A stretch of DNA of 64,000 nucleotides, from the NCBI GenBank assembly GCA_020137815.1, contig CM035361.1, forward strand, positions 6,510,001 through 6,574,000. The letters run 5' to 3'. This document shows, piece after piece, positions 18,611-64,000 of the stretch (the stretch's first letter is position 1; each line of letters opens with the position of its first letter). Source of the DNA: Hormiphora californensis (lineage: Eukaryota; Animalia; Ctenophora). Under the pieces are notes generated by a model. The model was not told the origin of the DNA, did not search any database, and saw only the letters and a program-made list of their open reading frames with translations. Made by a program: the position numbers and the translations under genes.

Positions 18611-18906
18611 GCGGTAACATACCTTCTCCTTGGCAAACAGTTTCCCGTCTTTACTATCAGTCACGGTAATATCAACATCATGAGATCCCTGTAGACCTTC
18701 AATCTTGAACTCCCCAACCACTAGAACACCTTTATGTACCTCCTCCTTGATGCATCTTGTACCTGAGAAGGGCGGGGGAGAAACATTCTTCGTCAGGGAA
18801 TCAAGATATTTGCTTAATTTTGTTATGTTTATAAGAATTATGAGAGTCACAAAAGTAAATATTAAGAGGAGCGGGGTTGCCATTGCGGGTTCTCAAGTTC
18901 ATATTA

Positions 18907-19110
18907 AGTTAACATCAAGTATTAACAATCCCTCACTTCTTACCTTCAGGGTTCTAAAGTTAACATCAAGTATTAACAATCCCTCACGTCTTACCTTCAG
19001 GGTTCCAAAGTTAACATCAAGTATTAACAATCCCTCACGTCTTACCTTCAGGGTTCTAATGTTCATATCAAGTTAACATTAATAATCCCTTACTTCTTAC
19101 CTTCAGGGTT
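18907..19110 (-). repeat. ~48-bp repeat x4 containing the TMED10 exon 1 donor (AACCCTGAAG|GTAAG)
   Basis: CTTACCTTCAGGGTT occurs at ~18939, ~18990, ~19041 and ~19096. Only the last copy is contiguous with the exon. Confidence 0.85.
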
Positions 19111-19136
19111 AAGTTTGAAGGAAAGTGCGGAGATGA

Positions 19137-36450
<17,314 letters not shown>

Positions 36451-37015
36451 ACTGTAATAATTGTTAGCATTGTGAGGTCGGGTTAGGATACAGTCGATCA
36501 ATTTATCGGGATGCCATAGGGATAAACAGTTTTTCCCGGTAAAGCGGGGTCCGACTGCAGTCCATTCAGGAGACATGGAATGTACTGGACAAGGGGAAAT
36601 GGCGGAGATAGCAAAGCCAAGTAAAACGCAACGTGTGAACGCTTGTACCAAAAAAGTTGTAATAAATAGAGTGGTAGCACGCAAAAACACACAAAAACAT
36701 GTTAAAATGGAAACCCAAGCTCAGCCCGAGCTATTTTGGGGAGGAAAAGTGTAAAAATTAGGCAAACAAACCAAACAAATTCTAACTGTTCAACTTTTTT
36801 CTGAACGAAAAAGGGGATAAGAGCCGAATTATATACTCAACTAAACGCTGATTCAACACACAAAAAGCATAGTTATAGATTGGTAACGGAATTACCCCTA
36901 CCTATCGTGATACCTACGAGGGCCAGGGGTAATTTCGTTACCATAGTTATAGAACTGTTATAGAAGTGTTTATAGCTCTTTGTTCTTGTTTTTGTTGCAT
37001 ACTTTCTCGAAGTAC

Positions 37016-40000
37016 TTATAGCTCGGCTTTGTTCTTGTTCTTGTTGCATACTTTCTCAAAGTACTCCAATTTACCGCTGGGATCAGGTTTCAGGGTGTCC
37101 GCACCGGGGGTCCAGTTGGCGGGGCAAACCTCGCCATGCTTATCGGTATACTGAGAGAGAGAGGAGGGGTGGTTAGAGTAGGTTAGAGGTATACTGGGGG
37201 AGGAGGTTAAGGGTGGTTAGGGGTTTACTGGAGGAGTTTAGGGGAGTTTAGGGGTGGTTAGGGGTGGTTATCGGTATACTGGGTGAAGAGGGGTGGTTAG
37301 GGGTGGTTAGGGGTGGTTGGGGGAGGTAGGGGAGGTTAAGAGTGGTTATCGGTTTACTGGGGGAGGATAGGGGTGGTTAGAGGTATACTGGGGGAGGTGG
37401 TTAGGGGTGGTTAGGGGTGGTAGGGGTGGTAAGGGGAGGTAGGGGAGGATAGGGGCGGCTATCGGTATACTGGGGGAGGTTAGGGGTGGTTAAGGGGCGG
37501 CTATCGGTATACTGGGGGAGGTTAGGGGTGGTTAGGAGAGGTAGGGGTGGTTAGGGGAGTTTAGGAGTGGTTAGAGGTATACTGGGGGAGGAGGGCCAGG
37601 GGTGGTTAGGGGTGGTTAATAGTGGTTATCGGTATACTGGGGGAGTTTAGGGGTGGTTAGGGGTGGTTAACGGTTTACTGGGGGAGGTTAGGGGTGGTTA
37701 GGGGTGGTTAACGGTTTACTGGGGGAGGTTAGGGGTGGTTAAGGGTGGTTAAGAGTGGGCGGTTAAACGGTATACTGGGAAGGGTGGCCGGTGGTTAGAG
37801 TAGGGGTTGGGAGGGGAGGTTAGGGGTGGCTAGAGGTATACTGGGGGAAGGAGGATACAAGTTTAGAGGAGGTAGGGGTGGATCCGGTATTGTAGTGGGA
37901 GAGGGGCGGTTGGGGGAGAGATAAGAGGGGAGGGCCAAGGGAGGTTATGTCAACTTAGGGCCCTATTATCGGTTTACTCAGTACAAAGGTAATAGGGATA
38001 CGCTAAGACGATACAAGTTGGTTTGTTCGTTTTTTTTGTCACTAAACCATGGAATACGCTTCTAAGCAGTCAGCAAACCTCCATACCATCCCGGGTATGT
38101 GGTAACTATGGCGCTTTTTTGCCTTTGTGATGGTCTTGAGTTGATAGGTGTGTAAAAGGTGGAATCATTACCTGGAAAGCCTGAACAAGTCGGAGTGTTT
38201 CATCGACTGAACGTCCGACAGGTAGGTCATTCATTGTGATCTGTCGCAGAATACCTGCGGGGATTTGGAGGATTTATAATGTGTTTTTATTTTAGGGACA
38301 TATATAAACTACATCTTTAAAAACTATTAAATGGTAAAAAGTACGGTTATTTTATAAAACAAAATATACTGATATTCAATATTTGTCTCAGTACCATTGC
38401 ATCTGAGTACACTCCAGGAACCAACCGAATCAGGGAATACTGGTCCCTGATTGGCTGATAACCAGCCCTTGATTGAGTGTTTGAAATATTTGAACTTTCA
38501 TTGTTTTCCGTACTCATTCTAAATGTTGACCACGATAAAAAGTCACGTGACCTAAATAACGAGTTCTGATTGGTTGTTTACTTGTTTCGGTCGGTTCCTG
38601 GTACACTTCACATCTACCTTCAAAATTTCATTAAAACTCCACAAACACTAAAACAATATCAGTAAAATTGGTCCCTGTCTTACCCTCCTTCAACAAACAA
38701 CCAACGCTATCTAGCGCTGTGTAAGAATCATTATTATCTAACAACCCCTCCAATACCTCCAAATCTTCATTTGATATCGGCGTATCAGATGAAACTAAAG
38801 CTCCAGAGGCATCCGTTGGCCCGTCCTGTCCATCAGTTGATGTCGCCAAAATAGTAACTTTTATCTCCCTCCCTCCTTCTCTTGACTTTTGTTTCTGAAT
38901 CTCAAGCAGGGCTGATAGAGCAAGTTCCTGCAACCGTCCACCTTTACCACTTCCTCGTATTGTAACAGTAGTCTCACCTCCAAACACAAAACAACAACTC
39001 CTCTTTGTCGATATTATTTTCCTGAACCCCTCATCAGAGAACTGGGTGTCCTGATCCCCAAACACAGATCTAATAATATCCCTGCCCACGTCCCGTGCTT
39101 CTCCACACATCCCGCTAGTTACAAGATAGTTGGGAATATGAGCATCATTGAGCGTGTCAATAGCAGCGGTTACGGCACATGATTGAGATGCTATTATGAT
39201 GTTGGAGAGATGAGGACACTTTGGAAGATCTTTAGTCTGAGAGGTATTGAGAAGTGTTAGGGCTGACTCAGGGACGGTGACACCTAAACTTTTGATAACA
39301 TCCAATCCACATTTTGTTGTCATGACAACCTCATTAGCAACGAGAGTTGGGCCACTGGCTATCACTTCAATTGGATCACCAATTACATCAGATATGATCA
39401 GACTCACAACAGTGCCAGCATTTTGTAGTTCCCGTGCCAGGCCGCCCTGTTTAACTCTATCTAACTGCCCCCGGACCGCATTCAACTCCCCAATACTTGC
39501 ACCTGATTTCACCAGCGCATCAATTGTATTCAACATATCAGGGAGAGGGATGAGAGGATCGGAAAACAATGCCGAACCACCACCCGATATCAAAACGATA
39601 CAAACATCACTTTCTGTTAGTTTACCAGCTTGTGCCATGATGGAACGAGATGTTCCGATACTGTCCTTATCTGGCATGTTGTTCAAGGCACCGGGGTTGA
39701 TTTGGAGAGATCGTCTGGAGGAAGAAGGAGGATAGCTTGTGTCATCGTGAGGTATTGACAAGATAGCTGTAGTGATGTGACTACTGAGCACTGAATCCAA
39801 TCCTTGGTACATGGACAGAACTGCCTTACCAAAACCAAAAACAGACACATTTCGATTGAGAACCATTGTTTTATTCTTAATTGTTAGTGTGTCCCCTTTT
39901 AATACTAAACTTTGTCGCACTAATGTTTCAGGATTTAGTTTGGAAAGGATTGAAGAGAGGATGGCTCGGTAAGGATGGGACATTAGGGACATGTCGCTGG

Positions 40001-41032
40001 ATTTGGGAATTATTTAGTCAGCTACTATGGAACAAAATCATAACTAAACAACAAACAAAAACATATTACATCTGTTTTCCATGCAAGGGAGAGAAATTAC
40101 TGATCAGTTTCCTTTAAAAAAACTCACAACCCACCTTTATCATCAATAATGAAAAGTCCCCGCCCATGACCCACCTTTATCATCGATAATGAAAAGACCC
40201 CTAAGAGTGTGTCCCTCGTCCTCCAACAAAACTCCATAATCCCGTGAAATACTTCTGGTTAGATCACTCAAGATAGGAATATCCATGTCTCCTAGACCAC
40301 CCTTGTTTCGGGGTGTGTTGATCCACGCGAGATGGGTGAATTTACTGTCAACTGAGGCTGCAATAACCTGGTGAGAGAAGTGTGGGGTGATTGTACCAGC
40401 CAGGGGGGGGGGCTTTTGAGTGGGATGATTGTACTCTCTACTCTCCAGCCAGAGCGGGGGTTTTGAGATATATCTAGGGAGAGCTGACGTTCACTAAATA
40501 ATATACGACATAGTGTTCAGCATTAAATTACTATGTAGTTGTGACAACTCTGTCTTACCGCGGTGTTAATGTCCTCAAACTCTTTGTTACGATCATTGAA
40601 GGCAATAATCTCCGTTGGACAGACAAAGGTGAAATCCAGAGGATAGAAAAACAGAACGACATACTTTCCTAAAAATTTTCAGTGTTAGATACCCATAGCA
40701 TAAGATGAATCCGATAAAATGAATGGGTAAAGTTACCTTTAAAGCTGGAGAGAGTTATGTCCTCAAATTTTCCTTTCACTACGGCAGCTGCAGTGAAATC
40801 AGGAGCTGGTTTACTGATACGGGCTTTGACCACACCCAACGCATGATCGTAGACCTGAAAAACGGTCAAATTTAACATTCAATTGCAGGGAGCAGGCAGG
40901 TGACCAGCCGCAATTTAGCAAATGTGTTCCAATTTTTACCTTGGGGCCATATCCGAAGATTCCGTTCATGGGGCATGCTTCGTCTGAAGCAGCAGCTAAG
41001 GCTACCAGTACAAAAAGGAGAAGGAATTTCAT
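37016..41032 (-). CDS. PRDX4: Typical 2-Cys peroxiredoxin, secretory/ER type (peroxiredoxin-4-like), 6 exons
   Basis: Exon 1 [20 protein letters not shown] (signal peptide); exon 2 [17 protein letters not shown]; exon 3 [23 protein letters not shown] (peroxidatic Cys); exon 4 (~40367-40175) [28 protein letters not shown]; exon 5 (38254-38172) [27 protein letters not shown]; exon 6 (37150-37016) [20 protein letters not shown]. Confidence 0.95.
37165..37980. repeat. G-rich minisatellite (AGGGGTGGTT units interspersed with TATCGGTATACTG) in PRDX4 intron 5
   Basis: Repeated GGGGTGGTTA. The embedded ATCGGTATACTG is the reverse complement of CAG|TATACCGAT, the PRDX4 exon 6 acceptor and first codons. 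Confidence 0.85.
38414..38601. mobile_element. CCAGGAACC MITE copy with ~75-bp internal insertion, just 3' of the glycerate kinase stop
   Basis: Both termini present. Flanks GTACACTC / GTACACTT give a near-8-bp duplication. Confidence 0.8.
38631..39992 (-). CDS. GLYCTK: Glycerate kinase (GLYCTK/TtuD, MOFRL family), single exon, nested in PRDX4 intron 4
   Basis: 453-aa ORF with [107 protein letters not shown]. Confidence 0.93.
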   Translation of the reverse strand: MSLMSHPYRAILSSILSKLNPETLVRQSLVLKGDTLTIKNKTMVLNRNVSVFGFGKAVLSMYQGLDSVLSSHITTAILSIPHDDTSYPPSSSRRSLQINPGALNNMPDKDSIGTSRSIMAQAGKLTESDVCIVLISGGGSALFSDPLIPLPDMLNTIDALVKSGASIGELNAVRGQLDRVKQGGLARELQNAGTVVSLIISDVIGDPIEVIASGPTLVANEVVMTTKCGLDVIKSLGVTVPESALTLLNTSQTKDLPKCPHLSNIIIASQSCAVTAAIDTLNDAHIPNYLVTSGMCGEARDVGRDIIRSVFGDQDTQFSDEGFRKIISTKRSCCFVFGGETTVTIRGSGKGGRLQELALSALLEIQKQKSREGGREIKVTILATSTDGQDGPTDASGALVSSDTPISNEDLEVLEGLLDNNDSYTALDSVGCLLKEGKTGTNFTDIVLVFVEF

Positions 41033-41536: not shown

Positions 41537-44500
41537 ATGTTCTCCGAATTCAAGAACTTTCGTTACCAAAGCTTCAGGCAGCTTAAAAATGACTGTGTGA
41601 AGGCAGATAATTTGTTCAACGATGGCATTTTTGGAGCCGATCACCTGTGTCTTGATATCAATGGATCTATGCAAGACCGAGTGTTACAGTGGCTACGACC
41701 AAAGGTAAATTGACATGTTTGTGTTTACACACATCCAGGGACAGCCTGGAGTAAATAACAAAACCTCTTTAAATCTGGGACCAAACCTGCTCAGATATTT
41801 GTGGAAGTTTTACTCGCTTTCTCTCCAGGACATCTACCCGGATCCCAAGCTAGGAACTGGAGGAGTTGATAAAGGGCAATACAGTAGTCCCGCCATTGCG
41901 GCAGCCCTAACTGCGGTTGGGTGCAAACTCTCACTGAAGGAACAAGTAATCGCTAAGGTATAGGAACAATTTCATAAATAATATATTTGTAGTGGGGCAT
42001 TTTCACCAAGAAATATCATGTTATTTAGATTTTCTAGTTAGTCACGACTTTTGAACTGCTAATATAATTCCACCGAATCTAACTCTCCTTTCAGGACCAG
42101 GAGTGGAATTCAGAGAAACCCCAACTCTACAGGGGGATATTCCACTTCAGATTTCACTACTTCGGGGAGTGGACTGATGTCGTCGTGGATGACCGGCTTC
42201 CAACACAAAAACATAAACTGGTAACTAGTTAATTAATTAATTAAATCAGAGATTAAACTGGTAATAATTGTGTGACATGTGCGGGTAATATTTAGCCCTC
42301 CTTTCATTGTTTGCTGTAGCCCCTCCCCAACAGTAAATGCCGCCCGACATGTGATTGAAATCACCTAATTCCCTATAAGGTCTACATGGGTGGTGAATAT
42401 GCTAACGAATTCTGGCCCGCTCTGGTGGAGAAAGCCTACGCTAAGCTACACGGTGGTTACAACGTCATTAACCTGATCCCCGTAACTGACGTACTAGCAG
42501 ATTTTACAGGTGGGTCCTGGTGGGTCGAGCAGGTGGGTGATGTGTCCTGGTGGGTCGAGCAGGTGGGTCCTGGTGGGTCGAGCAGGTGGGACGAGCAGGT
42601 GGGTCCTGGTGGGCAGGTGGGTGATGGTGGGTCCTGGTGGGTCCTGGTGGGTCCTGGTGGGTCCTGGTGGGACCTGGTGGGTCGAGCAGGTGGGTCCTGG
42701 TGGGTCGAGCAGGTGGGTCATGGTGGGTCCTGGTGGGTCCTGGTGGGTCGAGCAGGTGGGTGATGGGTCCTGGTGGGTCCTGGTAGGTCGAGCAGGTGGG
42801 TCCTGGTGGGTCCTGGTGAGCAGGTGGGTCCTGGTGGGTCGAGCAGGTGGGTCCTGGTGGGTCCTGGTGGGTCCTGGTGGGTCCTGGTGGGTCCTGGTGG
42901 GTCGAGCAGGTGGGTCCTGGTGGTCTCTCCCTTTTAGTGGGTAGTAATTAATTTTCCCTCTCTCCTTTTAGGGGTTTAAATTTTAAAACCCTTCTTCTCC
43001 AGGGGGGTAGGAGAAATTTTTCCCCCTTTCCCCTTTTGGTTTAGGGTTTAAACCCAACCCCTTTCCCCCTCCTTTTGTGGTAAAGGTTAAACCCTTTCCC
43101 CTCCCCCAGGTGGTTTTTAGGAAGTTAACCCCCTTTTCCCCCCTCTCTCCAGGGGGTGTTATGAGGTAGTAAGTTAACCTCATTCCCTCTCCCCCGGGGG
43201 GGTTAGGAGGAAATTAAAATTCCCCCTCCCTTTTTAAAGGGGTAAAAAATTTTCCCTCTTTTCCTTTTGGGGGGGGTAGGAAGTTAAACCCCCCCCCCTC
43301 TTCCCCCTTTTTTGGGGGGGTTTAAATTTTTTCTCCTCTTTCCCTTTTACCGGGGGTTTTAGGTAATCTACTCCTCTCCCCTCTCAGGTGTGTTAAATAG
43401 TATAATCTACCTCTTCTCCCTCTCTACCGGTGGGTAGTTAGCTAACCTCATTCCTCTCTCCTCAGGGGGGTTAGGTAAAACCTCATTTTCCTCTCTCTCC
43501 GGTGGGGTTAGTAGGGAGTTAAAACCTCTTTCCTCTCTCTACCGGGGTTGGGGTAGTAATCTAATCCCCTTCTCCTCTCTCTACAGGTGGTGTTTATTTT
43601 ATAAGTTTTAATATCTCCTCTTCTCCGTTTTAGGTGGTTGTAGTTAACCAAATTTTCCTCTCTCTCCCAGGTTAGTGAGGGAGTAGGTCTAAACCCCATT
43701 TCTCCCCCACCAGGTGTTGTGAGGTAGTAAGTCTAACCTCATTCTCCTCTCTCTACCAGGTGGTGTTAGTGAGGTAGTAAGTCTAACCTCATTCTCCTCT
43801 CTCTACCAGGTGGTGTTAGTGAGGTAGTAAGTCTAACCTCATTCTCCTCTCTCTACCAGGTGGTGTTAGTGAGGTAGTAAGTCTAACCTCATTCTCCTCT
43901 CTCTACCAGGTGGTGTTAGTGAGGTAGTAAGTCTAACCTCATTCTCCTCTCTCTACCAGGTGGTGTTAGTGAGGTAGTAAGTCTAACCTCATTCTCCTCT
44001 CTCTACCAGGTGGTGTTAGTGAGGTAGTAAGTCTAACCTCATTCTCCTCTCTCTACCAGGTGGTGTTAGTGAGGTAGTAAGTCTAACCTCATTCTCCTCT
44101 CTCTACCAGGTGGTGTTAGTGAGGTAGTAAGTCTAACCTCATTCTCCTCTCTCTACCAGGTGGTGTTAGTGAGGTAGTAAGTCTAACCTCATTCTCCTCT
44201 CTCTACCAGGTGGTGTTAGTGAGGTAGTAAGTCTAACCTCATTCTCCTCTCTCTACCAGGTGGTGTTAGTGAGGTAGTAAGTCTAACCTCATTCTCCTCT
44301 CTCTACCAGGTGGTGTTAGTGAGGTAGTAAGTCTAACCTCATTCTCCTCTCTCTACCAGGTGGTGTTAGTGAGGTAGTAAGTCTAACCTCATTCTCCTCT
44401 CTCTACCAGGTGGTGTTAGTGAGGTAGTAAGTCTAACCTCATTCTCCTCTCTCTACCAGGTGGTGTTAGTGAGGTAGTAAGTCTAACCTCATTCTCCTCT

Positions 44501-47500
44501 CTCTACCAGGTGGTGTTAGTGAGGTAGTAAGTCTAACCTCATTCTCCTCTCTCTACCAGGTGGTGTTAGTGAGGTAGTAAGTCTAACCTCATTCTCCTCT
44601 CTCTACCAGGTGGTGTTAGTGAGGTAGTAAGTCTAACCTCATTCTCCTCTCTCTACCAGGTGGTGTTAGTGAGGTAGTAAGTCTAACCTCATTCTCCTCT
44701 CTCTACCAGGTGGTGTTAGTGAGGTAGTAAGTCTAACCTCATTCTCCTCTCTCTACCAGGTGGTGTTAGTGAGGTAGTAAGTCTAACCTCATTCTCCTCT
44801 CTCTACCAGGTGGTGTTAGTGAGGTAGTAAGTCTAACCTCATTCTCCTCTCTCTACCAGGTGGTGTTAGTGAGGTAGTAAGTCTAACCTCATTCTCCTCT
44901 CTCTACCAGGTGGTGTTAGTGAGGTAGTAAGTCTAACCTCATTCTCCTCTCTCTACCAGGTGGTGTTAGTGAGGTAGTAAGTCTAACCTCATTCTCCTCT
45001 CTCTACCAGGTGGTGTTAGTGAGGTAGTAAGTCTAACCTCATTCTCCTCTCTCTACCAGGTGGTGTTAGTGAGGTAGTAAGTCTAACCTCATTCTCCTCT
45101 CTCTACCAGGTGGTGTTAGTGAGGTAGTAAGTCTAACCTCATTCTCCTCTCTCTACCAGGTGGTGTTAGTGAGGTAGTAAGTCTAACCTCATTCTCCTCT
45201 CTCTACCAGGTGGTGTTAGTGAGGTAGTAAGTCTAACCTCATTCTCCTCTCTCTACCAGGTGGTGTTAGTGAGGTAGTAAGTCTAACCTCATTCTCCTCT
45301 CTCTACCAGGTGGTGTTAGTGAGGTAGTAAGTCTAACCTCATTCTCCTCTCTCTACCAGGTGGTGTTAGTGAGGTAGTAAGTCTAACCTCATTCTCCTCT
45401 CTCTACCAGGTGGTGTTAGTGAGGTAGTAAGTCTAACCTCATTCTCCTCTCTCTACCAGGTGGTGTTAGTGAGGTAGTAAGTCTAACCTCATTCTCCTCT
45501 CTCTACCAGGTGGTGTTAGTGAGGTAGTAAGTCTAACCTCATTCTCCTCTCTCTACCAGGTGGTGTTAGTGAGGTAGTAAGTCTAACCTCATTCTCCTCT
45601 CTCTACCAGGTGGTGTTAGTGAGGTAGTAAGTCTAACCTCATTCTCCTCTCTCTACCAGGTGGTGTTAGTGAGGTAGTAAGTCTAACCTCATTCTCCTCT
45701 CTCTACCAGGTGGTGTTAGTGAGGTAGTAAGTCTAACCTCATTCTCCTCTCTCTACCAGGTGGTGTTAGTGAGGTAGTAAGTCTAACCTCATTCTCCTCT
45801 CTCTACCAGGTGGTGTTAGTGAGGTAGTAAGTCTAACCTCATTCTCCTCTCTCTACCAGGTGGTGTTAGTGAGGTAGTAAGTCTAACCTCATTCTCCTCT
45901 CTCTACCAGGTGGTGTTAGTGAGGTAGTAAGTCTAACCTCATTCTCCTCTCTCTACCAGGTGGTGTTAGTGAGGTAGTAAGTCTAACCTCATTCTCCTCT
46001 CTCTACCAGGTGGTGTTAGTGAGGTAGTAAGTCTAACCTCATTCTCCTCTCTCTACCAGGTGGTGTTAGTGAGGTAGTAAGTCTAACCTCATTCTCCTCT
46101 CTCTACCAGGTGGTGTTAGTGAGGTAGTAAGTCTAACCTCATTCTCCTCTCTCTACCAGGTGGTGTTAGTGAGGTAGTAAGTCTAACCTCATTCTCCTCT
46201 CTCTACCAGGTGGTGTTAGTGAGGTAGTAAGTCTAACCTCATTCTCCTCTCTCTACCAGGTGGTGTTAGTGAGGTAGTAAGTCTAACCTCATTCTCCTCT
46301 CTCTACCAGGTGGTGTTAGTGAGGTAGTAAGTCTAACCTCATTCTCCTCTCTCTACCAGGTGGTGTTAGTGAGGTAGTAAGTCTAACCTCATTCTCCTCT
46401 CTCTACCAGGTGGTGTTAGTGAGGTAGTAAGTCTAACCTCATTCTCCTCTCTCTACCAGGTGGTGTTAGTGAGGTAGTAAGTCTAACCTCATTCTCCTCT
46501 CTCTACCAGGTGGTGTTAGTGAGGTAGTAAGTCTAACCTCATTCTCCTCTCTCTACCAGGTGGTGTTAGTGAGGTAGTAAGTCTAACCTCATTCTCCTCT
46601 CTCTACCAGGTGGTGTTAGTGAGGTAGTAAGTCTAACCTCATTCTCCTCTCTCTACCAGGTGGTGTTAGTGAGGTAGTAAGTCTAACCTCATTCTCCTCT
46701 CTCTACCAGGTGGTGTTAGTGAGGTAGTAAGTCTAACCTCATTCTCCTCTCTCTACCAGGTGGTGTTAGTGAGGTAGTAAGTCTAACCTCATTCTCCTCT
46801 CTCTACCAGGTGGTGTTAGTGAGGTAGTAAGTCTAACCTCATTCTCCTCTCTCTACCAGGTGGTGTTAGTGAGGTAGTAAGTCTAACCTCATTCTCCTCT
46901 CTCTACCAGGTGGTGTTAGTGAGGTAGTAAGTCTAACCTCATTCTCCTCTCTCTACCAGGTGGTGTTAGTGAGGTAGTAAGTCTAACCTCATTCTCCTCT
47001 CTCTACCAGGTGGTGTTAGTGAGGTAGTAAGTCTAACCTCATTCTCCTCTCTCTACCAGGTGGTGTTAGTGAGGTAGTAAGTCTAACCTCATTCTCCTCT
47101 CTCTACCAGGTGGTGTTAGTGAGGTAGTAAGTCTAACCTCATTCTCCTCTCTCTACCAGGTGGTGTTAGTGAGGTAGTAAGTCTAACCTCATTCTCCTCT
47201 CTCTACCAGGTGGTGTTAGTGAGGTAGTAAGTCTAACCTCATTCTCCTCTCTCTACCAGGTGGTGTTAGTGAGGTAGTAAGTCTAACCTCATTCTCCTCT
47301 CTCTACCAGGTGGTGTTAGTGAGGTAGTAAGTCTAACCTCATTCTCCTCTCTCTACCAGGTGGTGTTAGTGAGGTAGTAAGTCTAACCTCATTCTCCTCT
47401 CTCTACCAGGTGGTGTTAGTGAGGTAGTAAGTCTAACCTCATTCTCCTCTCTCTACCAGGTGGTGTTAGTGAGGTAGTAAGTCTAACCTCATTCTCCTCT

Positions 47501-50500
47501 CTCTACCAGGTGGTGTTAGTGAGGTAGTAAGTCTAACCTCATTCTCCTCTCTCTACCAGGTGGTGTTAGTGAGGTAGTAAGTCTAACCTCATTCTCCTCT
47601 CTCTACCAGGTGGTGTTAGTGAGGTAGTAAGTCTAACCTCATTCTCCTCTCTCTACCAGGTGGTGTTAGTGAGGTAGTAAGTCTAACCTCATTCTCCTCT
47701 CTCTACCAGGTGGTGTTAGTGAGGTAGTAAGTCTAACCTCATTCTCCTCTCTCTACCAGGTGGTGTTAGTGAGGTAGTAAGTCTAACCTCATTCTCCTCT
47801 CTCTACCAGGTGGTGTTAGTGAGGTAGTAAGTCTAACCTCATTCTCCTCTCTCTACCAGGTGGTGTTAGTGAGGTAGTAAGTCTAACCTCATTCTCCTCT
47901 CTCTACCAGGTGGTGTTAGTGAGGTAGTAAGTCTAACCTCATTCTCCTCTCTCTACCAGGTGGTGTTAGTGAGGTAGTAAGTCTAACCTCATTCTCCTCT
48001 CTCTACCAGGTGGTGTTAGTGAGGTAGTAAGTCTAACCTCATTCTCCTCTCTCTACCAGGTGGTGTTAGTGAGGTAGTAAGTCTAACCTCATTCTCCTCT
48101 CTCTACCAGGTGGTGTTAGTGAGGTAGTAAGTCTAACCTCATTCTCCTCTCTCTACCAGGTGGTGTTAGTGAGGTAGTAAGTCTAACCTCATTCTCCTCT
48201 CTCTACCAGGTGGTGTTAGTGAGGTAGTAAGTCTAACCTCATTCTCCTCTCTCTACCAGGTGGTGTTAGTGAGGTAGTAAGTCTAACCTCATTCTCCTCT
48301 CTCTACCAGGTGGTGTTAGTGAGGTAGTAAGTCTAACCTCATTCTCCTCTCTCTACCAGGTGGTGTTAGTGAGGTAGTAAGTCTAACCTCATTCTCCTCT
48401 CTCTACCAGGTGGTGTTAGTGAGGTAGTAAGTCTAACCTCATTCTCCTCTCTCTACCAGGTGGTGTTAGTGAGGTAGTAAGTCTAACCTCATTCTCCTCT
48501 CTCTACCAGGTGGTGTTAGTGAGGTAGTAAGTCTAACCTCATTCTCCTCTCTCTACCAGGTGGTGTTAGTGAGGTAGTAAGTCTAACCTCATTCTCCTCT
48601 CTCTACCAGGTGGTGTTAGTGAGGTAGTAAGTCTAACCTCATTCTCCTCTCTCTACCAGGTGGTGTTAGTGAGGTAGTAAGTCTAACCTCATTCTCCTCT
48701 CTCTACCAGGTGGTGTTAGTGAGGTAGTAAGTCTAACCTCATTCTCCTCTCTCTACCAGGTGGTGTTAGTGAGGTAGTAAGTCTAACCTCATTCTCCTCT
48801 CTCTACCAGGTGGTGTTAGTGAGGTAGTAAGTCTAACCTCATTCTCCTCTCTCTACCAGGTGGTGTTAGTGAGGTAGTAAGTCTAACCTCATTCTCCTCT
48901 CTCTACCAGGTGGTGTTAGTGAGGTAGTAAGTCTAACCTCATTCTCCTCTCTCTACCAGGTGGTGTTAGTGAGGTAGTAAGTCTAACCTCATTCTCCTCT
49001 CTCTACCAGGTGGTGTTAGTGAGGTAGTAAGTCTAACCTCATTCTCCTCTCTCTACCAGGTGGTGTTAGTGAGGTAGTAAGTCTAACCTCATTCTCCTCT
49101 CTCTACCAGGTGGTGTTAGTGAGGTAGTAAGTCTAACCTCATTCTCCTCTCTCTACCAGGTGGTGTTAGTGAGGTAGTAAGTCTAACCTCATTCTCCTCT
49201 CTCTACCAGGTGGTGTTAGTGAGGTAGTAAGTCTAACCTCATTCTCCTCTCTCTACCAGGTGGTGTTAGTGAGGTAGTAAGTCTAACCTCATTCTCCTCT
49301 CTCTACCAGGTGGTGTTAGTGAGGTAGTAAGTCTAACCTCATTCTCCTCTCTCTACCAGGTGGTGTTAGTGAGGTAGTAAGTCTAACCTCATTCTCCTCT
49401 CTCTACCAGGTGGTGTTAGTGAGGTAGTAAGTCTAACCTCATTCTCCTCTCTCTACCAGGTGGTGTTAGTGAGGTAGTAAGTCTAACCTCATTCTCCTCT
49501 CTCTACCAGGTGGTGTTAGTGAGGTAGTAAGTCTAACCTCATTCTCCTCTCTCTACCAGGTGGTGTTAGTGAGGTAGTAAGTCTAACCTCATTCTCCTCT
49601 CTCTACCAGGTGGTGTTAGTGAGGTAGTAAGTCTAACCTCATTCTCCTCTCTCTACCAGGTGGTGTTAGTGAGGTAGTAAGTCTAACCTCATTCTCCTCT
49701 CTCTACCAGGTGGTGTTAGTGAGGTAGTAAGTCTAACCTCATTCTCCTCTCTCTACCAGGTGGTGTTAGTGAGGTAGTAAGTCTAACCTCATTCTCCTCT
49801 CTCTACCAGGTGGTGTTAGTGAGGTAGTAAGTCTAACCTCATTCTCCTCTCTCTACCAGGTGGTGTTAGTGAGGTAGTAAGTCTAACCTCATTCTCCTCT
49901 CTCTACCAGGTGGTGTTAGTGAGGTAGTAAGTCTAACCTCATTCTCCTCTCTCTACCAGGTGGTGTTAGTGAGGTAGTAAGTCTAACCTCATTCTCCTCT
50001 CTCTACCAGGTGGTGTTAGTGAGGTAGTAAGTCTAACCTCATTCTCCTCTCTCTACCAGGTGGTGTTAGTGAGGTAGTAAGTCTAACCTCATTCTCCTCT
50101 CTCTACCAGGTGGTGTTAGTGAGGTAGTAAGTCTAACCTCATTCTCCTCTCTCTACCAGGTGGTGTTAGTGAGGTAGTAAGTCTAACCTCATTCTCCTCT
50201 CTCTACCAGGTGGTGTTAGTGAGGTAGTAAGTCTAACCCTCATTCTCTCTTGAGGTAGTAGCTAACTCATTCTCCCTCTCACAGTGGTGTTTGAGTAGTA
50301 ATCTACCCATTCTCCTCTCTCTACCGGTGGTGTTTTGAGGTAGTAAGAGTCCCTCATTCTCCTCTCTCTACCGGTGGTTTGTGGGTATACTAACCTCATC
50401 CCTCTCTCTACCAGTGTGTTAGGAGGTATAGTCTAACCTCATCTCCCCTCTACGGGGGTTGTGAGGTGTAGCTACCCATCCCTCCTCTACCGGTGTTGTG

Positions 50501-51760
50501 AGGTAGTGTCTAACCTCATTCTCCTCTCTCTACCGTGTGTTATGAGGTAGTATCTACCTCATTCTCCTCTCTACCATGGGTGTTTTTATGAGGTATAAGT
50601 CTAACCTTTATTCTCCTCCTCTCCAGGTGGTGTTAGTGAGTAGTAGTCTAACTCATTCCCCTCTCTCTACAGTGGTGTTAGTGGAGGTTTTNNNNNNNNN
50701 NNNNNNNNNNNNNNNNNNNNNNNNNNNNNNNNNNNNNNNNNNNNNNNNNNNNNNNNNNNNNNNNNNNNNNNNNNNNNNNNNNNNNNNNNNNAAGTTAACC
50801 TCATTCTCCTCCTTCCAGGTGTTGTTAGTGAGGGTAGTAAGTCTAACCCTCATTCTCCTCCTCTACCGGGTGGGTTAGTGAGGTAGTAAGTCTAACCTCA
50901 TTTTCCTCTGAAAACCTCTCTGCTGCTGAGGAGTGGGTTCAGTTCTATGAAATGTTGGAGGAATCCCATGCCAACAATACTGTCTTTATTGCTACTAACT
51001 CAAAGGTAAAGTAGTGGCATGACGTCACACTGTGATGTCATAGCTTTGTAAAGGTGAACTGTGACGATATGTGACGAATATGTCTGTGTATAGCAATGAC
51101 ATTGGCTGTGTATGTGATGTAAGTGGAAGGTCGAATAGTGCCAACATGTGTGTTAGGATGAGTTTTGTCATGTGTTGTACTGACTGGGTAGGTAGTTCTG
51201 AAGGGGAGGCCCGGAGGAAGCTAGTTATAATAGGTGCCCAAGGTACAGTGTGTGTATATGGTAGTGTGTAGTTTTCTGTCCATTGTGTTTACTGAACTGG
51301 GCGTTATGTTTAGTATCTAGAAGTGCAACCCCAAGTTTCATAATTGGTAGAAATACAGCTTCCGTTAATCCTATCTTATGTTTTGATGGTAGAAATACAA
51401 TTCTTAGTTATAATCTTATAAACCAAGTCTCCCTAACTCTGGTGTAGTGTGTATACATTTTTGATGTTGTAATGTTGCAATGTAAAGTAACATGTGAACA
51501 ACATGTTAGTAGGACGTGGGGGTAGGTATAGCGTTGTATCACACGCGTCGAATCAATGTAACATGTTCCAAAACAGTGGTGGACATTCAAAGGTATTACA
51601 CAGGGTGGACGAGGAGAGTACTCTGAGAAGGGATCAAGTAACGGTATAAGTGGGTGGCAGAGGTGAAAAAGGGTCTTTATCTCTCTATATATGTATATTC
51701 AGAGATGAGAGACAAGACAGAGAGGAGAGAGAGGAGAGAGCACAGAGCAGAAGAAGAGAG

Positions 51761-51803
<43 letters not shown>

Positions 51804-51941
51804 CGCGAGGCAGAGAGAGAGCATAGAAGCATCTGAGAATAGAGAGAGCACGATATCTCTCTCTCTCTCTGATCTCTCCTATCTCTCTATCTGCCATTAC
51901 TCTCTCGCTCTAGCTCTCTCTCTATCTCTCTCTCTCTCTCT

Positions 51942-52001
<60 letters not shown>

Positions 52002-55000
52002 GGTAAACGTGGGAAGCATGTTCAGTAGAGATTACATCTACTTATTGAAAATGGTATCCCCGACTAGCGAGGGATGGACTGGCCCCTATTCTAATGGTAC
52101 GTCAGATTTTGGAGAGATTTGGTGTAGAGATTGTACACATTACTGATACGGTTAAAAGTAACATTTGAGTTTTTTGTGGGTTATCATAGCGCTGGCAAGC
52201 GCCCGGGGCCCAATCCTCCCTCCCCCCAACCATCCTTCCCTTAAAAATGTCCACTTTCCAAGCATTCTTGCTTCCAGTGAACGGAAAATCGAAATTGCGA
52301 AAAAAAAATTTTTTGAATTTTTTGAAAATTTTTGAAAATTTTGACAGCGCTACTATACTTATTGTCTGAAATCGGCAATTTCAACTTTATTTTAGACAAC
52401 CTTCCCGTTGTCCTACGAACTTGCCGCTTGGTAGTTCGTGTTGCCTTGACACCTAGAGCACACGTTCAAAATTTCATGCAAATCGGAGTTACGGTTTTTA
52501 CGTTACAGAGGGTCGTATTTTAGACAAAATGTCCGTTTTTAGGGTCCCGAACCACCTTGATTGTACCACCTTTTTGCGTACAAAATAGAGGCCACAGTTT
52601 TAAAGCTATCACCATGAAACTTTGGGAGTCGGTAGGTCTAGTGGTGAACCTTGTATTAAAGCTTGGACAGAGAAAACGGACAGTCATAACAAAAGTTATG
52701 ACTGTCTTAAGTTTTCTTTGGCGTTTAAGACGGCCTTCCCGTCGTTCTACAAATACGCCGCTTGGTACGCGGTGTTGCCTTGACATCTTGAACACACGTT
52801 CAAAATTTCAAGCAAATCCGAGTTACGGTTCGTCAGTTATGGGCATCTGACTGTATTAAGATTTAAGACGATTTTCAAAAAAACTTAGAAAAGAGCAAAT
52901 TAAACTATAAATCATGATTTTATCATACATGTTTTTCCAACGTGGGTTAACTGCTGTATTTTCAGATATAATTGGTAGTCATATCTATATTTGTGACTGT
53001 CTTAAATTTAAGACGATTTTAAAAACACCTACAAAGAAGCGATTCAGAGTCTAAATTAACATTGAATCAGATTTAATTTATAAAGCTAGCCTTACTGCCG
53101 CATTTTCAGTTGTAATTGGTAGTCATATCTAGAGTTATGACTGTCTTAAATATAAGACGATTTTAAAAACCACCGAGAAAAGAGCGAATTAGCATCTAGA
53201 ACCTGATTTTATCAGATATACTGATTATTACTGCTTATCCGTGATCATTATTCCGTGACTAATAATCAAAATCATAGTTTAGTCGCGGAGAACTGCAATC
53301 GCTATAAATAACTAACCACGATAACTTGTCGCGAAATAAGTAATATAATAGTAACCAATCGCGGCCGATAGCTAATCGCAGATGGCTAATCGCGATAGCT
53401 AATCGTGATAGCTAATCGCGATAACTAAGATCGCGATAACTTATAACGGATTGATAACTGATAAGTTATCCGCAATTGGTTGTCTGCGATTACTATGATT
53501 ATATTAGTTATTCGTGATTGATATACGAGATTGGATATCTGCGATTATTATGAGGCTACCTAGTACCTACGATTTAAAAAGTCTGCGAATCCTCAATCCG
53601 CGTTTATTAAATTAAGCTAGTATTACAAGATGCATGCAGCATGTCATAGTATAACAAAATGCCTGATACTAGATCCAAAAACCAAACAAGTTTGGTGGAT
53701 AGCCGGGGCCGCAGAAATTAAAAAACATGCGAAAGTTTTGATACATGAACTTTCGGGGCCTGGGGTGCTGTTAAATTCGCGTTTCCATGATAGTCAGCCG
53801 TTCTTTCAAAATACAATATTATTATCATAATAATATTATTCTGTAAAACAGACTCTGAAACGACCCACTGTGCACAGTAAATATATGTGACATGTGTGGA
53901 TGTGACATGTGATAATGTGGAATAAATTAATGGTTTGATCATTGCACTATTTTTCCTGGCGTATAGTTTGAAAATGTTATTGGTTATAATCATGGAAACG
54001 CGAATTTAACAGCACCCCAGGCCCCGAAAGTTCATGTATCAAAACTTTCGCATGTTTTTTAATTTCTGCGGCCCCGGCTATCCACCAAACTTGTTTGGTT
54101 TTTGGATCTAGTCAGTTATTCAGTTATATCACTGATAACAAGGAAAGTGGGAGGTAGTTGGTGTCACAAATACCGCCTCTTATCTCTTTATGCAGTTCTA
54201 GTATATTAGGGCATGCAGGGAGGGGATAATGTCATTTTCCCGCCCTACCCTACTGATATTTTAATTAGTATTCCCACTAACTTTCACTTCCTTACCGAGC
54301 TATATTTGTATCTCAATAATAGATCTGATATTTACCAAGTATGAAGTACATAAATCTAACATCAACTACCAGTAACCACAGGTTTTCTACCCTGTTGGCG
54401 GTGCCTTTTGAGTTTTAACTTTTTCACGATAAAAATAATGATAGTATGTACCACAAAAACAATAATTAGTCAATTAAAATCTAATTAACATATTTCTTTA
54501 GAATCTGTCGAACTGGCACAGCTATCTGACTCCGCCAAGAAAGATATGAAGACAACTAGCACCCGACATTTCTGGATGACTGTTGGAGATTTTATGTCAG
54601 GTATTAATAAGATGATTGGTAATGAAGTTACCTCTCACTATATATGCAACAATAGGGACCTGACTTCGTAACCAAATAAGATGATATGTTGGTGATTGTG
54701 GTAAAATTATTAGCTCCCCCATCCCTATGCATCACTTGTTATGTTCAAACCCTTTGATGCACAGGGATCAGGGAGGGTCGAACAAGGCAAATCATCACCC
54801 CCTCTATAATATCACCCGTAAAATACCCCATTAATTAATTAATTAATTAACTAATTAATTAGCTCTCCCCTACAGAGTTCTCCCACATTATTATAACACA
54901 TGTGATCAACACGTCCATGCTGTCACTCTCCAAAACGTGGCGGTTGGAACAGTTCAGGAGTTGGTGGGGAGATGGAAAGGCGGGAGGATTTAATAATGAT

Positions 55001-55653
55001 CCGGTTGGTTTTACATTGCATTTTTTTGTCCTGGTTTACTTTGTATTCCTTCCTTCTATCATTATTATTAATATTTCCTACATCTATTGTTGATGGTCCT
55101 TGTCCCGGAGAGTGCTCTACTCACGCGTTGCGAGGAGCTATTAACAAGTAAAACAAGGAAGTTTTAGTTCAACTGTTGAACTAAAACTTCCTTGTTTTAC
55201 TTGTTAGTATTTTCTACATCTACTAATTCACTACTAGTGATCTGCCAATAACTAAGTTATCCCATCTCTCTCTCTCTTGCAGGCGATATTTATACGATGT
55301 AACCACCAGTTCTTTATGGACGTCACTGATGATGAGGTAAAGCGATATTTTCTCTGTCAGAGCATTGGCCTGACAGTATTTTCTATACGTCCAGAGTCAT
55401 GGGGGTCCGGGGTCCAAAAATTCACCCCTAAAGAAAATGTAGGACCCCTCTCTGTTCTCCGATCTAAATTACTTCATTACCCCTTTCCATCAGGTGGTTA
55501 ACATTGTCTCACACTTCTCTTCCATTCCATCAGGCGGTTATCCTAATCGAACTGACACAGAAACCACAGTACACGGGGGCAGTCAGCAGTTGTAACCCAT
55601 TTGATGATGGCTCTGCTCCAGCCTTCAAGAAAATAGGGTTCGCTGTTCTGGAG
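41537..55653 (+). CDS. Calpain-5/6 (TRA-3)-like protein, apparently catalytically inactive; multi-exon, 3' exons not found in window
   Basis: Exons: 41537-41704 [21 protein letters not shown]; 41829-41957; ~42095-42220 [37 protein letters not shown]; ~42380-42509 [23 protein letters not shown]; ~50870-51005 GVSEVVSLT..; ~52003-52096 ..GWTGPYSN; ~54502-54600 ..HFWMT; ~54876-55003 [16 protein letters not shown]; ~55283-55336; ~55534-55653 ..IGFAVLE. QEW..EKP and VINTS.LS..KTW are CAPN5-type signatures. Confidence 0.88.
42510..42925 (+). repeat. GGTGGGTCCT / GAGCAGGTGGGT minisatellite reiterating a calpain donor (CAG|GTGGGT)
   Basis: Begins at the first base of the intron after ..GATTTTACAG. 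CAGGTGGGT recurs more than 10 times. Confidence 0.85.
42940..50900 (+). repeat. 50-bp satellite (~130 perfect copies, ~43710-50230, with garbled flanks); unit = calpain 3' splice site + start of the next exon
   Basis: Unit GTGGTGTTAGTGAGGTAGTAAGTCTAACCTCATTCTCCTCTCTCTACCAG. The last copy runs into unique coding sequence (..CTAACCTCATTTTCCTCTGAAAACCTC..). Confidence 0.95.
50692..50791. other. Assembly gap (100 N) inside the 50-bp satellite
   Basis: Run of exactly 100 n, so the true array length is unknown. Confidence 0.99.
52190..53240. mobile_element. Probable non-autonomous element in a calpain intron (ends not defined)
   Basis: Internal direct repeats (GTTATGACTGTCTTAA..AAGACGATTTT x3-4; GTTGCCTTGACA..CACGTTCAAAATTTCA x2) and no coding capacity. 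Confidence 0.45.
53668..54112. mobile_element. MITE-like element with ~124-bp perfect terminal inverted repeats
   Basis: 53668-53791 (ACTAGATCCAAAAACC...GCGTTTCCATGAT) is the reverse complement of 53989-54112, around an AT-rich ~200-bp spacer. No TSD recognised. Confidence 0.82.
55142..55206. repeat. Perfect 65-bp palindrome (32-bp arms, 1-nt centre) in a calpain intron
   Basis: TAACAAGTAAAACAAGGAAGTTTTAGTTCAAC-T-GTTGAACTAAAACTTCCTTGTTTTACTTGTTA. Confidence 0.9.
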
Positions 55654-60568: not shown

Positions 60569-63500
60569 TCAATTATTTGATAATCCAAGTGCTACTGCAA
60601 ACCAGTGTGAACCCACACCATCCGAGTTATTTACAATATAAAACCGCTTATTGATACGCTGGATTACATGGTCATCAACTCTTTTTTTAAATGTATACAG
60701 GCTGATAGCGTCGTCCACATTATACTTCGTGTATAGTTCATTAGCATTAACATCAATATTATAATATTCACTCAGATAAACAGCAATTAATTCTAAGCAC
60801 TGGCCACCAAATAGAAAGGCAGGAGTATTAATAGGCTGTATGTTTAGTTTCGTGTTAGCAATAAAAATCATGTTATTTGTAACTTCACCTCCAAATACAC
60901 AATCGTCATAACACACATTCATGTCAAAGCAGTCTGGCATAGATATCATTTTGGAAATTACTCTAGCTGCTATGTATCCACAACTGAATCCTTTCTGTGA
61001 CTGGTGCCTGATTGTCCTGACCTTATATCCAAGTAGATTTAGATGGCAGCTAATATCTACGGACTCTACACACGGTAGGAAATCAACAACAACAGCGCAT
61101 AAGTTACTTGTCGAAGTGATGGTCTGAACGATATCTGGCAAGGGAACACTGTCGGACGGCAGTACAGAATTGAAGGAAAACTCGGGCAAAGATCGCAGTC
61201 GTTCATATTCAGCCGTTATCACTGGGTCAACTTTAATGTTCGACGCCTGAAATCCTAGCAGATGCAATCCTGATAGGTTAGTCAATCGAGATATAGCTGT
61301 ATAGGCCATACCCGCCTTCCAAAACCTCCCTGTAAGATCGACATATGCCCTTTCCAAAGTCATCCCCTGGCACTTGTGAGCCGTTGTTGCCCAACACAAA
61401 ACAAAGGGAAGTTGATATCGTGACACATAAGCATTCCTACCACCATGAACAGAACTCTGAAACTGTTTCTCTACCGGTTTAATGGGAACAGTTGACCGCA
61501 ATGGACAATTGGGTGTACATTTAGGACCACAGGCGTGCTTAGAGAGCACTCCAACTTTTACATTATCAAACTCGATGTGGACCTCCTTCACAACTTTGGC
61601 AGTAACTTTGTCCGCAGTGTGACTTGTATTTGTACCCGTGAATGAAATCAATCTGACAGTACCACAAACTCCGTTACACAACTTTTCAGACACATCAAGA
61701 TTAACCCTGATCATAACTCTTGCACCCACTCCTATAGTAATTGATTGAGGTAACCCCGCAGTCTTGTTTACGTTTGCAGCAGCATGAGATGATGCATTTC
61801 TCTTAGTATCCCCTCCAAAAGGATTTCCATTGAATGCCTCATTTGTAAATCTGTCACAAGCTGTCACAGTAATGCATCGGGTTTTAGTTCTGAGAAAGTC
61901 AATACATTTCGTGTTATGCTCCCGACACTGTAAGTTTGTCGTATACAGTACAAGATCATTTAACATGTCTGCAACTGGAGGGAGCACATCGATGACACGA
62001 GATCTGAGGACATCCATGTCACTGTTTGTTTGAATCCCAGTACGGAGCCTATGACAGATTTCGGTAAATTGTGAATCACCTTTGCTTCTTACAATTTCTG
62101 TCAACTCAGAAAACGTGACCAAGTCCTTCCATAAGTTAACTGAGAGCTTCGCGGGCCCTCTGGGATCAAATATCTTTGTCTGTTGTACAGGAGGTATCTG
62201 GTAAAAGTCACCAAAAAATAAGATATTAACACCGCCAAAATAGTCATGTTGTCCATTCATACCCTTTAACTGGTTCAAGCGACCATGAATATGATTTAGC
62301 ACAGTATTCCCTAGCATTGATACCTCATCAATTATGAGATACTGAAGATTACCAAACAGTCCATCGATCATATTCTGGCACTTGCTCGAGCTGAGAGGCT
62401 TTTGATTTGAGATATATCCGCCTCTTTGTGTATCTAGCTGAAGCATTTGGTGCACGGTAATGCCTTCCACCAACGCTGCAGCTGTTCCAGTGGTTGCCGT
62501 GACAGCCACATAAGGCTTCAAGGCTGAGCCACCCAATGTCTTGTTAATGCAAGCACGAAGTACACTGATGAGGAAGGTTTTCCCTACACCGCCTGCACCA
62601 GATATAAAATGGATTAGCTGGCGAACGCCTTTACCCGAAGCAACCTTAATAACATGGTCTTGCACCAACTTGAATACTCCCTGTTGCTTGATGTTCAGTG
62701 AGTTAACACGGGTATCATACTCCTCTTTGCTGATGTCTGGCTCAACGTACGTAACTTTAAAGTTAACCTTGTCATCTGGGTCCTTCAATCCAGGCCGAGG
62801 ATGAAGCAAAGCAAACCGATTATCCAACTTATCACCATGTTTTTTACAGGCATCTTCTACATCAAGTCGATCTTTGATAGACTGTTTAACTTCATCCACT
62901 ATATCCTCCATTGTATCAGAGTCAATTGTCTCAAACCTGGACATATTACTGTTAATGACTGCAGCTTTATACATAAACGAATCCTCAAGGTTGTCGTAGT
63001 GACCCTCAATCTCGCCCTCTGACCTCCAAGGGAAGTACATACAGATCTTAGAGTAATAATAACCCTCGGGATCTGTTTTCCTTGACGGGCAATGTGTACG
63101 TACAACCACAGGAGACAAACGCTTAATCATACGACCCAGCTCCTCTTTCTTCAATACAATGATTCGTGACCTGTTATTGTTATTTTCTTTTTCATAACAC
63201 GTCTTGTAATGAACGGCAAACTCCATAAAGCTCATATCATTTAAACAGTCCGGTCTATGGGGATAGCGGTCAATCAGGCCCTTGTTGAACACATCCTTAG
63301 AATCACTATGAAGAGCTTGCAGCTGATGTTTAGACTTGAGCATACCGTGACGAAATTTAGGTTGATTAGAAGGGACAAATATTACCTCAGGCTTAGACAC
63401 AGACATGGAGTAAGGCATGGTCCTATAGATCGATTCCTGCTGACTAACAGATCGTGTATTAATGAAAACGTTGCCAAGCTGTTTCAACTTAGTCCGCGTA

Positions 63501-64000
63501 TCAATGTTAACAGGGTCGTCAATTTCCTTCAAAACATCCTTCATCTTGTCACAAACAGCCTTCTCGGTTTTAGTAGCATAAGCCAATACATAGTTGACCA
63601 TGTCCCACATGGACGTAACGAATTGAATATCCATGTTTGATCGGGTAGCCCTCAATAGGGCCTCGTTATAAGGATTGACATACTCATTTCCGACAGAACG
63701 CTTGTACTCTACCTTCTGCTTACGACCACTATTCCTGAGACCTGATTTGACTTGCCCATCTGCCATTCCTTCTTGAGACTCGGTCCCAATGATGAATGTT
63801 TTCGCCGTGACTTTTCTAGGGAAATGGAAACGACATGAACCTCCACTATTTTCCGAATACTTAGTACAGGTTTTCGTGTGTCGGTGAGTTTGCAACTTCA
63901 CAAGTTCGTGGAGGCAGGCATCTTCTTCCAAGGAAGGATTTTCAGTAGAAACGTGTTGATCAATGTAAGAGATTACCTTCTCAAGAGAATCAACCCCGAG
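60569..64000 (-). mobile_element. Helitron (Helentron/Helitron2-like) Rep-Pif1 helicase ORF, intact and intronless, truncated by the window edge
   Basis: Rep C-terminal motifs QTHRHTKTCTK..CRFHFP, NPYN..NMDIQFV..YVLAYATK (YxxxY), RSVSQQESIYR. SF1B/Pif1 motifs SGAGGVGKT, ATTGTAA, LIIDEVSM, FGGVNILFFGDFYQIPPV, ELTEIVR, GARVMIRVNLD..LCNG, RYQLPFVLCWATTAHKCQGMTL, GMAYTAISR. The frame stays open upstream of 63931. Confidence 0.93.

Follow-up and report, generated by a model that had tools for sequence, protein, structure and literature searches.

The closest described counterparts of the locus treated in this study are the mirages of amphioxus, which are tandem duplications of intron-exon borders. 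Mirages reportedly have units of 10-160 bp, are unstable in length and leave splicing undisturbed, and they were found in Adh3, the globin genes BflGb6 and BflGb9, troponin C and PGBD5, with 3 and 6 copies in two haplotypes in the case of BflGb6 (PMC3087553, PMC3902484). In the 37-bp variable number tandem repeat (VNTR) in intron 7 of human F7, identical copies of the donor are silent and the copy that is first in the order of transcription wins (PMC1557585). The ratchet points that mediate recursive splicing in Drosophila are strong, conserved and few per intron, and nearly all of the segments between them exceed 1 kb (PMC6110457, PMC8605326). Here we analyzed a stretch of 64,000 nt of the ctenophore Hormiphora californensis (GCA_020137815.1, contig CM035361.1, positions 6,510,001 to 6,574,000 of the forward strand; hereafter designated as the window), in which intron 4 of a calpain-5-like gene harbors a long array of a 50-bp unit made of its own acceptor and the start of exon 5. 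We consider it probable that the array is an acceptor-side mirage minisatellite, in which the intron 4/exon 5 border was repeated head to tail at least 129 times, presumably as a result of slippage or unequal crossing-over, and splicing of the mRNA probably still takes place in one step. By analogy with amphioxus, the array would be a mirage of unusual size and homogeneity, that is, a likely harmless type of unstable repeat of a kind already known.

The array and its surroundings comprise the following features (positions in the window).

42380-42509, forward strand: exon 4 of the calpain-like gene, ending in ..DFT-G at phase 1, with the donor CAG|GTGGGT
42510-42930, forward strand: donor-side repeat with 10/13-bp units (GGTGGGTCCT / GGTGGGTCGAGCA) and 12 copies of CAG|GTGGGT
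42934-43759, forward strand: left flank of ~21 degraded 50-bp units, rich in deletions, likely long-read error
43760-50209, forward strand: exact core of the array, 129 units, each the start of exon 5 (41 nt, one mismatch) plus CTCTACCAG
50210-50869, forward strand: ~11 degraded units, a gap of 100 N (50692-50791) and, between the gap and the last acceptor, ~1.5 more degraded units
50870-51005, forward strand: exon 5 of the calpain-like gene, 137 nt with the read-supported start, ending in ...TNSK, with the donor AAG|GTAAAG

A script counted 129 exact copies of the 50-mer within 43760-50209 at a spacing of exactly 50, and Tandem Repeats Finder (TRF) gave 130.7 copies with 99% matches (43713-50247), in agreement with the ~130 perfect copies claimed in an initial annotation. 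The unit is composed of the first 41 bases of exon 5, with one mismatch, and nine intron bases. All of the 129 exact units carry CTAAC, a pyrimidine tract and CAG|GTGGTG, with GTAAGT at +18 (17 + 33), which confirms the composition proposed in that annotation, namely an acceptor plus the start of the next exon with CTAAC, AG|GT and GTAAGT. The same annotation regarded the intron as filled with the unit; this holds for the core of the array, but the first ~420 bp of intron 4 are a separate, donor-derived repeat distinct from the 50-bp unit, the flanks of the core are degraded, and the 100-N gap interrupts the right flank. The units on the left share 69% identity (228 deletions, 92 substitutions and 10 insertions) and the ~11 units on the right 82% identity (91 deletions, 9 substitutions and 4 insertions), a deletion-rich profile that looks like unpolished long-read error. 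The copies outside the exact core, ~34 in all, are error-like, and 2.4 units sit beyond the gap. In the assembly, the units add up to roughly 163, and the 100-N gap indicates that the array was not spanned in the assembly.

Exon 4 ends in ..GATTTTACAG at 42509 and is followed by GT, which places the upstream exon end where the initial annotation had put it, in phase 1. Likewise, only the last copy runs on into unique coding sequence, as had been noticed, and three ctenophore orthologs are colinear with this junction, reading D(L)TGGV(S/C)EV through it without a gap. Joining exon 4 to the last acceptor yields an open frame of 230 residues through exon 5. When 1, 2, 3 or 4 extra units were kept, a stop appeared at codon 207 each time, the frame-neutral case of 3 included; since the stop sits in the first repeated stretch, any internal copy yields a stop at this codon. 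The initial annotation had expected most of the internal copies to break the frame: they do fail, but failure extends to any of them and comes with the stop at codon 207. Of the two routes to a correct mRNA that it offered, the choice of the most distal acceptor is judged right as the likely route. The last acceptor alone gives an open, ortholog-colinear frame. At this last, true acceptor, the assembly lacks the AG and is one exon base short (CTACCGG GTGGGTTAG), whereas eight contigs of the short-read run X2 read ..CTCTCTACCAG GTGGT before 50874 as loose ends. As the X2 contigs carry an intact last acceptor, the lost AG is an assembly error. A chain of 17-nt microexons was also considered and rejected, as one to four copies each lead to a stop at codon 196.

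The contigs of four short-read runs were compared with both flanks of the array. In X2, the summed contig depth was 226,581 at 50879-50907, compared with 137.9 where exon 5 is unique, and the loose ends on either side of the array match the 50-bp unit, so that the tandem structure is seen. The array exists in the Illumina short reads of X2 and its last acceptor is intact. The depth ratios in X2, ~470 to 1,600 relative to exon 5 and as high as ~8,500 relative to exons 1-4, are summed contig depths and do not represent copy numbers, and the depth on unique sequence varies ~fourfold between exons (27-64 versus 138); they suggest that the assembly understates the array, which would comprise hundreds of units or more. 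Variant units seen in X2 at depths of 22-52 were rejected as real variants, given that a read error of 0.1% predicts 21-75.

In contrast to X2, depth was flat across the acceptor in runs X5 (664.5) and X6 (224.2). No joints going back on themselves were listed at the acceptor for these two runs, and individual contigs extend out of exon 5 into the intron by 61 letters (X5) and 45 letters (X6). The sample behind X5 and X6 (S2) shows no array. Thus, the presence or absence of the array is a polymorphism or a difference between close species. At the other end of the intron, the contigs of X2 and X5 contain a further copy of the donor of exon 4 (42503-42524), ~37 bp in length and with ~15 filler letters, which is missing from the assembly, and the depth of the donor-derived repeat is high in X5 and X6 as well.

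Judged by its sequence, the host gene is a non-catalytic calpain-5-like gene of a ctenophore. The calpain identity in the initial annotation agrees with the ctenophore orthologs and with the match to Pfam Peptidase_C2 on exon 3, and is narrowed down to a non-catalytic, calpain-5-like protein. Besides exons 4 and 5, the gene comprises the following parts.

41537-41704, 41829-41957 and 42095-42220, forward strand: exons 1-3 of the calpain-5-like gene (tblastn with ctenophore orthologs; Pfam Peptidase_C2 on exon 3)
51593-55653, forward strand: further exons of the calpain-like gene, with exon 6 at ~51593-51673 and frame breaks in the assembly

The first match, the ortholog P0001, has its closest named relative in Mnemiopsis leidyi, and another ortholog clusters with a Bolinopsis protein named 'calpain-5-like'. 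At the three columns of the Cys-His-Asn triad, P0001, P0003 and P0004 have P/P/S, S/G/G and S/S/S, respectively, and the window protein, with KGQYSSPAI at the Cys site and KMVSP at the Asn site, has no catalytic triad either. The gene (41537-55653) and the three orthologs are thus triad-less, yet they are ~60% identical among themselves; by these residues they constitute a conserved ctenophore pseudo-protease. The residues of the orthologs beyond ~428 found no match within the 64-kb window. No read covered exon 6 (51575-51660) in the four runs, which proves nothing on this exon. A contig of run X7, 83% alike, passes from exon 1 into exon-2-like letters; this run is RNA only by guess and represents a diverged ortholog of the calpain-like gene, and at exon 5 it matched over 32 nt only, not reaching the exon 4/exon 5 junction. 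A search for RNA that crosses this junction listed no match, which is not evidence regarding expression. The scan of metagenomes with exon 1 gave 152 pattern matches, among which there was no relative. Among the exonic differences listed between the window and X5, 21 of the 22 are synonymous, and the single replacement is a Val in the window, which is closer to the Ile of the orthologs. The excess of synonymous differences indicates that the gene has been under purifying selection.

The array shares with the amphioxus mirages a tandem unit that spans an intron-exon border, in this case the end of intron 4 and the start of exon 5 with the orthologs colinear with the last copy, and that carries a splice signal, CTAAC, the pyrimidine tract and CAG being present in all 129 exact copies; the unit of 50 bp falls in the range of 10-160 bp. 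A mirage would have a homogenised core and diverged units at its edges; here the core is exact, and the edges are deletion-rich and look like read error. The copy number differs between haplotypes in amphioxus and between samples here, where length instability appears as very high depth in X2 against flat depth in X5 and X6, with one sample for comparison. The Adh3 mirage is reportedly unstable in somatic tissue as well. Like the mirage of BflGb6, the array is of the acceptor type. It differs in its size, i.e. at least 129 identical units and >8 kb left unspanned versus 2-7 units at 81-100% identity in the reported globin and PGBD5 mirages, and in its ctenophore host; furthermore, normal splicing was shown by reverse transcription-polymerase chain reaction (RT-PCR) in amphioxus, whereas the present array is known from DNA alone. 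No ctenophore report of such arrays was found in the literature searched by title and abstract start, most of the subscription papers being outside reach. The value of the locus thus lies in its scale and lineage, the kind being known already. The F7 VNTR is similar in that its end unit spans the exon border and in that it contains identical pseudo-sites, functional but silent in F7, yet it is donor-side and its true site is transcribed first (PMC1557585). An acceptor mirage puts the true site last in the order of transcription, here behind >160 identical decoys.

In the reading as an acceptor mirage, intron 4 would be removed in one step from the donor of exon 4 to the last acceptor. This donor, CAG|GTGGGT, scores 4.3 bits in a crude matrix built from 31 local donors (used for all of the donor scores below), higher than 19 of the 31. 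Of all the copies, the last acceptor alone leads into the complete exon 5 of 137 nt and its good donor, and would therefore be selected by exon definition across this exon. The internal acceptors, spaced at 50 nt and followed by weak donors only, would be disfavored, and their use during transcription could be slowed by a hairpin predicted for the branch region of each unit. A slip to an internal acceptor would lead to the stop at codon 207 and to nonsense-mediated decay, lowering the output while leaving the protein the same.

A possible origin is visible at the border itself, in the form of a direct repeat of 18 nt (CTAACCTCATT C/T TCCTCT) whose two copies, one at the end of the intron and the other in exon 5, exactly 50 nt further downstream, differ by a single mismatch. 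The intron ends in CATGACTCTTTTCTCTCTCTACCAG in X6, without a match to the direct repeat, and in AACCTCATTCTCCTCTCTCTACCAG in X5, with a partial match and no array. A first duplication at a pyrimidine-rich similarity may have created the 18-nt direct repeat, after which misalignment would add or remove whole units, so that the array would grow and be homogenised through slippage or unequal crossing-over. The end in X6 (no match), that in X5 (partial match) and that in X2 (very many units) could represent three states of one process. Hairpins were rejected as the driver of expansion, as DNA folding of both the 50-bp unit and the 81-bp unit of a neighboring array (see below) fell within shuffles (z of about -0.9 for one 50-bp unit). 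The birth of an intron by AGGT duplication, as known from elsewhere (PMC3265369), was rejected too, as the intron is present in the array-less sample.

Tandem duplications were found at 9 of the 65 other junctions in the window (14%), all on the intron side; the 65 junctions were modelled by hand and are those other than the array's own acceptor and calpain exon 6. For the background, from which introns >3 kb and calpain intron 5 were left out and in which interior positions overlap and are not independent, duplications occurred at 496 of 2553 intron-interior positions (19%; with low-complexity sites removed, 407 of 2419) and, inside exons, at 8 of 724 positions. Junctions are thus copied about as often as the background positions within introns, and the interior of exons is rarely copied. 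A targeting of duplications to splice sites was not supported (9/65 versus 496/2553). The counts for the window suggest that a high rate of duplication in the region yields the junction copies as a by-product, without aim at splice sites. Small exon-border duplications of 2-4 copies were seen at 4922-5031, 7160-7310, 7441-7540, 8370-8475, 9421-9560, 18906-19110, 40120-40190 and 55460-55540, in a gene with an SRCR domain, TMED10, a peroxiredoxin gene and the calpain gene, and by eye the acceptor at 7063 is copied again, more loosely, within 6651-7080.

Several points weigh against the one-step acceptor mirage. The harmlessness of the array is borrowed from amphioxus cases with far fewer units (3 and 6 in BflGb6), while >8 kb of identical acceptors are transcribed ahead of the true one, and the first-copy-wins rule of F7, if carried over to acceptors, would favor a wrong copy. 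The hairpin predicted for one unit of RNA does not clearly exceed shuffles (z -1.66; 10 of 200 shuffles) and includes the branch site of the last acceptor too; the fold of three units (z -2.85) was not counted because shuffling destroys the periodicity. The X2 contigs match the window almost exactly, so that X2 may be the source sample of the assembly, and X5 and X6 represent a single sample, whose exon 5 is ~5% diverged and which may be of a sister species. Finally, the synonymous excess covers the 22 listed differences, with 37 more beyond the list, and is a record of past selection on the gene, not of a working array allele.

The main rival, which we regard as unlikely though worth weighing, is a crippled allele, in which splicing would go mostly to an early internal acceptor, the stop at codon 207 would lead to decay, and the animal would live on a shorter second allele or tolerate the loss of a non-catalytic calpain. 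All of the internal acceptors tested lead to a stop and all are transcribed before the true one; the array, absent from the second sample, may be young and not yet purged; and the protein lacks a catalytic triad. The putative frame breaks of exon 6 in the assembly would also fit, but similar breaks occur in the SRCR gene and TMED10 and look like assembly indels. Exons 1-5 show no decay, with 21 of the 22 listed differences synonymous and the one replacement closer to the orthologs, and an array of similar size lies at the conserved TMED10, both of which argue against a crippled allele.

The initial annotation favored a recursive-splicing ratchet array: exon 4 would be joined to an internal acceptor, CAG|GTGGTG would be regenerated, and one or more rounds of re-splicing would proceed to the last acceptor, the array being removed stepwise. 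We find this reading unsupported and regard it as improbable. Each unit does have a branch-like CTAAC, a pyrimidine tract and a juxtaposed AG|GT, and joining exon 4 to the unit restores CAG|GT. Fly ratchet points pair an acceptor with a donor and are accompanied by a cryptic exon of short length and a downstream donor that competes (PMC8605326), and like them the units have AG|GT within a multi-kilobase intron and a donor-like motif shortly downstream. In human UBC, tandem repeats each have an AGGT able to act as a donor or an acceptor (PMC10809524); its monomers are frame-preserving coding units of 228 nt for which splicing was shown, whereas the present unit is intronic, 50 nt long and contains stops. 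The score of the regenerated donor is within the local range, albeit near the bottom: CAG|GTGGTG reaches 1.7 bits, above only 3 of the 31 local donors, none of which reads GTGGTG, and it is surpassed by GAG|GTAGTA at +15 (3.1 bits), while GTAAGT at +18 scores -0.2 bits. In the fly, a weakened ratchet donor loses to the donor of the cryptic exon, which is then included (PMC8605326). Moreover, the identical site regenerated at the correct junction would have to stay silent. AG|GT occurs at 12 of 33 local acceptors and is accounted for here by the conserved Gly-Gly codons, as the phase-1 intron interrupts conserved T-G-G-V codons. Unlike Drosophila ratchet points, then, the sites have weak donors, are absent from the second sample, lie 50 nt apart instead of in segments of which nearly all exceed 1 kb (PMC6110457), and are copied from coding sequence. 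The neighboring array has AG|AA. The shortest interval among 30 modelled for local introns measures 68 nt and thus exceeds the hops of 33 and 50 nt that the ratchet would require; longer hops are possible. It is equally doubtful that ctenophore genes carry satellite-scale arrays of their own acceptors (hundreds of copies, possibly tens of kb) as standing variation, and that the present array is survivable because a wrong first splice regenerates a donor from which re-splicing to the last acceptor corrects the error. If true, recursive splicing would act as accidental proofreading in an animal outside the Bilateria, and its sites would owe their existence to the expansion of a repeat and not to conservation by selection.

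It is very improbable that most of the assembled array is artefactual, with long-read error, amplification or polishing having lengthened a short repeat, as the short-read depth of 226,581 against 137.9 on the adjacent unique exon and the unit-matching loose ends on both sides indicate more copies than were assembled, even though the core is perfect between error-rich flanks, the gap is unspanned, a 1649-nt poly-A in the other array indicates assembly trouble, the unique depth in X2 is ~fourfold uneven (27-64 versus 138) and X2 may be the source sample. The array-bearing and array-less samples form a natural pair for exon definition versus first-come co-transcriptional choice versus re-splicing, and the AG|AA array next door is a built-in control incapable of re-splicing.

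This second array, the largest of the duplications at the other junctions, is located upstream of the calpain gene in the window.

19136-36451, reverse strand: 81-bp acceptor array before the start exon of TMED10/p24, ~190 units by span, of which 79 are exact, with the junction TGTAG|AATG

Like the 50-bp unit, the 81-bp unit copies an acceptor, CTAAC and the pyrimidine tract included, and its AG|AA junction is unable to ratchet; judging from the unit, giant acceptor arrays arise in this region without a ratchet. The unit contains an ATG and 27 open codons, and use of an upstream acceptor would add repeated, signal-peptide-like extensions in frame and without a stop. The acceptor one base 5' of the ATG of TMED10 may be a trans-splice site. 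In the 50-bp unit (43777-43782) and the 81-bp unit, GTAAG lies directly 5' of CTAAC, producing look-alikes of 33- and 32-nt introns, respectively, the donors of which score poorly (-0.2 and 0.7 bits). The pure poly-A run of 1649 nt (22987-24635) within the 81-bp array is likely assembly filler.

Single-base frame breaks were observed in the SRCR gene (~6480), TMED10 (17000-18100) and calpain exon 6 (51593-51673), and look like unpolished long-read indels. An exon near the calpain gene is 96% identical to a gene model of Pleurobrachia bachei, which marks the host as a Pleurobrachia-like ctenophore. The 1.9-kb intron of the peroxiredoxin gene contains a long coding stretch on the same strand (38760-39990, reverse strand), which, judging from a motif, may encode a glycerate kinase. 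In another ctenophore, nested genes are common, tandem repeats amount to 13% and trans-splicing is common (PMC8527503); the accessible part of that account makes no mention of junction repeats. The calpain gene and both arrays lie between two stretches near the ends of the window. By eye and from motifs, 1-2500 on the forward strand is presumably a reverse-transcriptase-like element of the long interspersed nuclear element (LINE) type, and 60700-64000 on the reverse strand a helicase-like element of the Helitron type.

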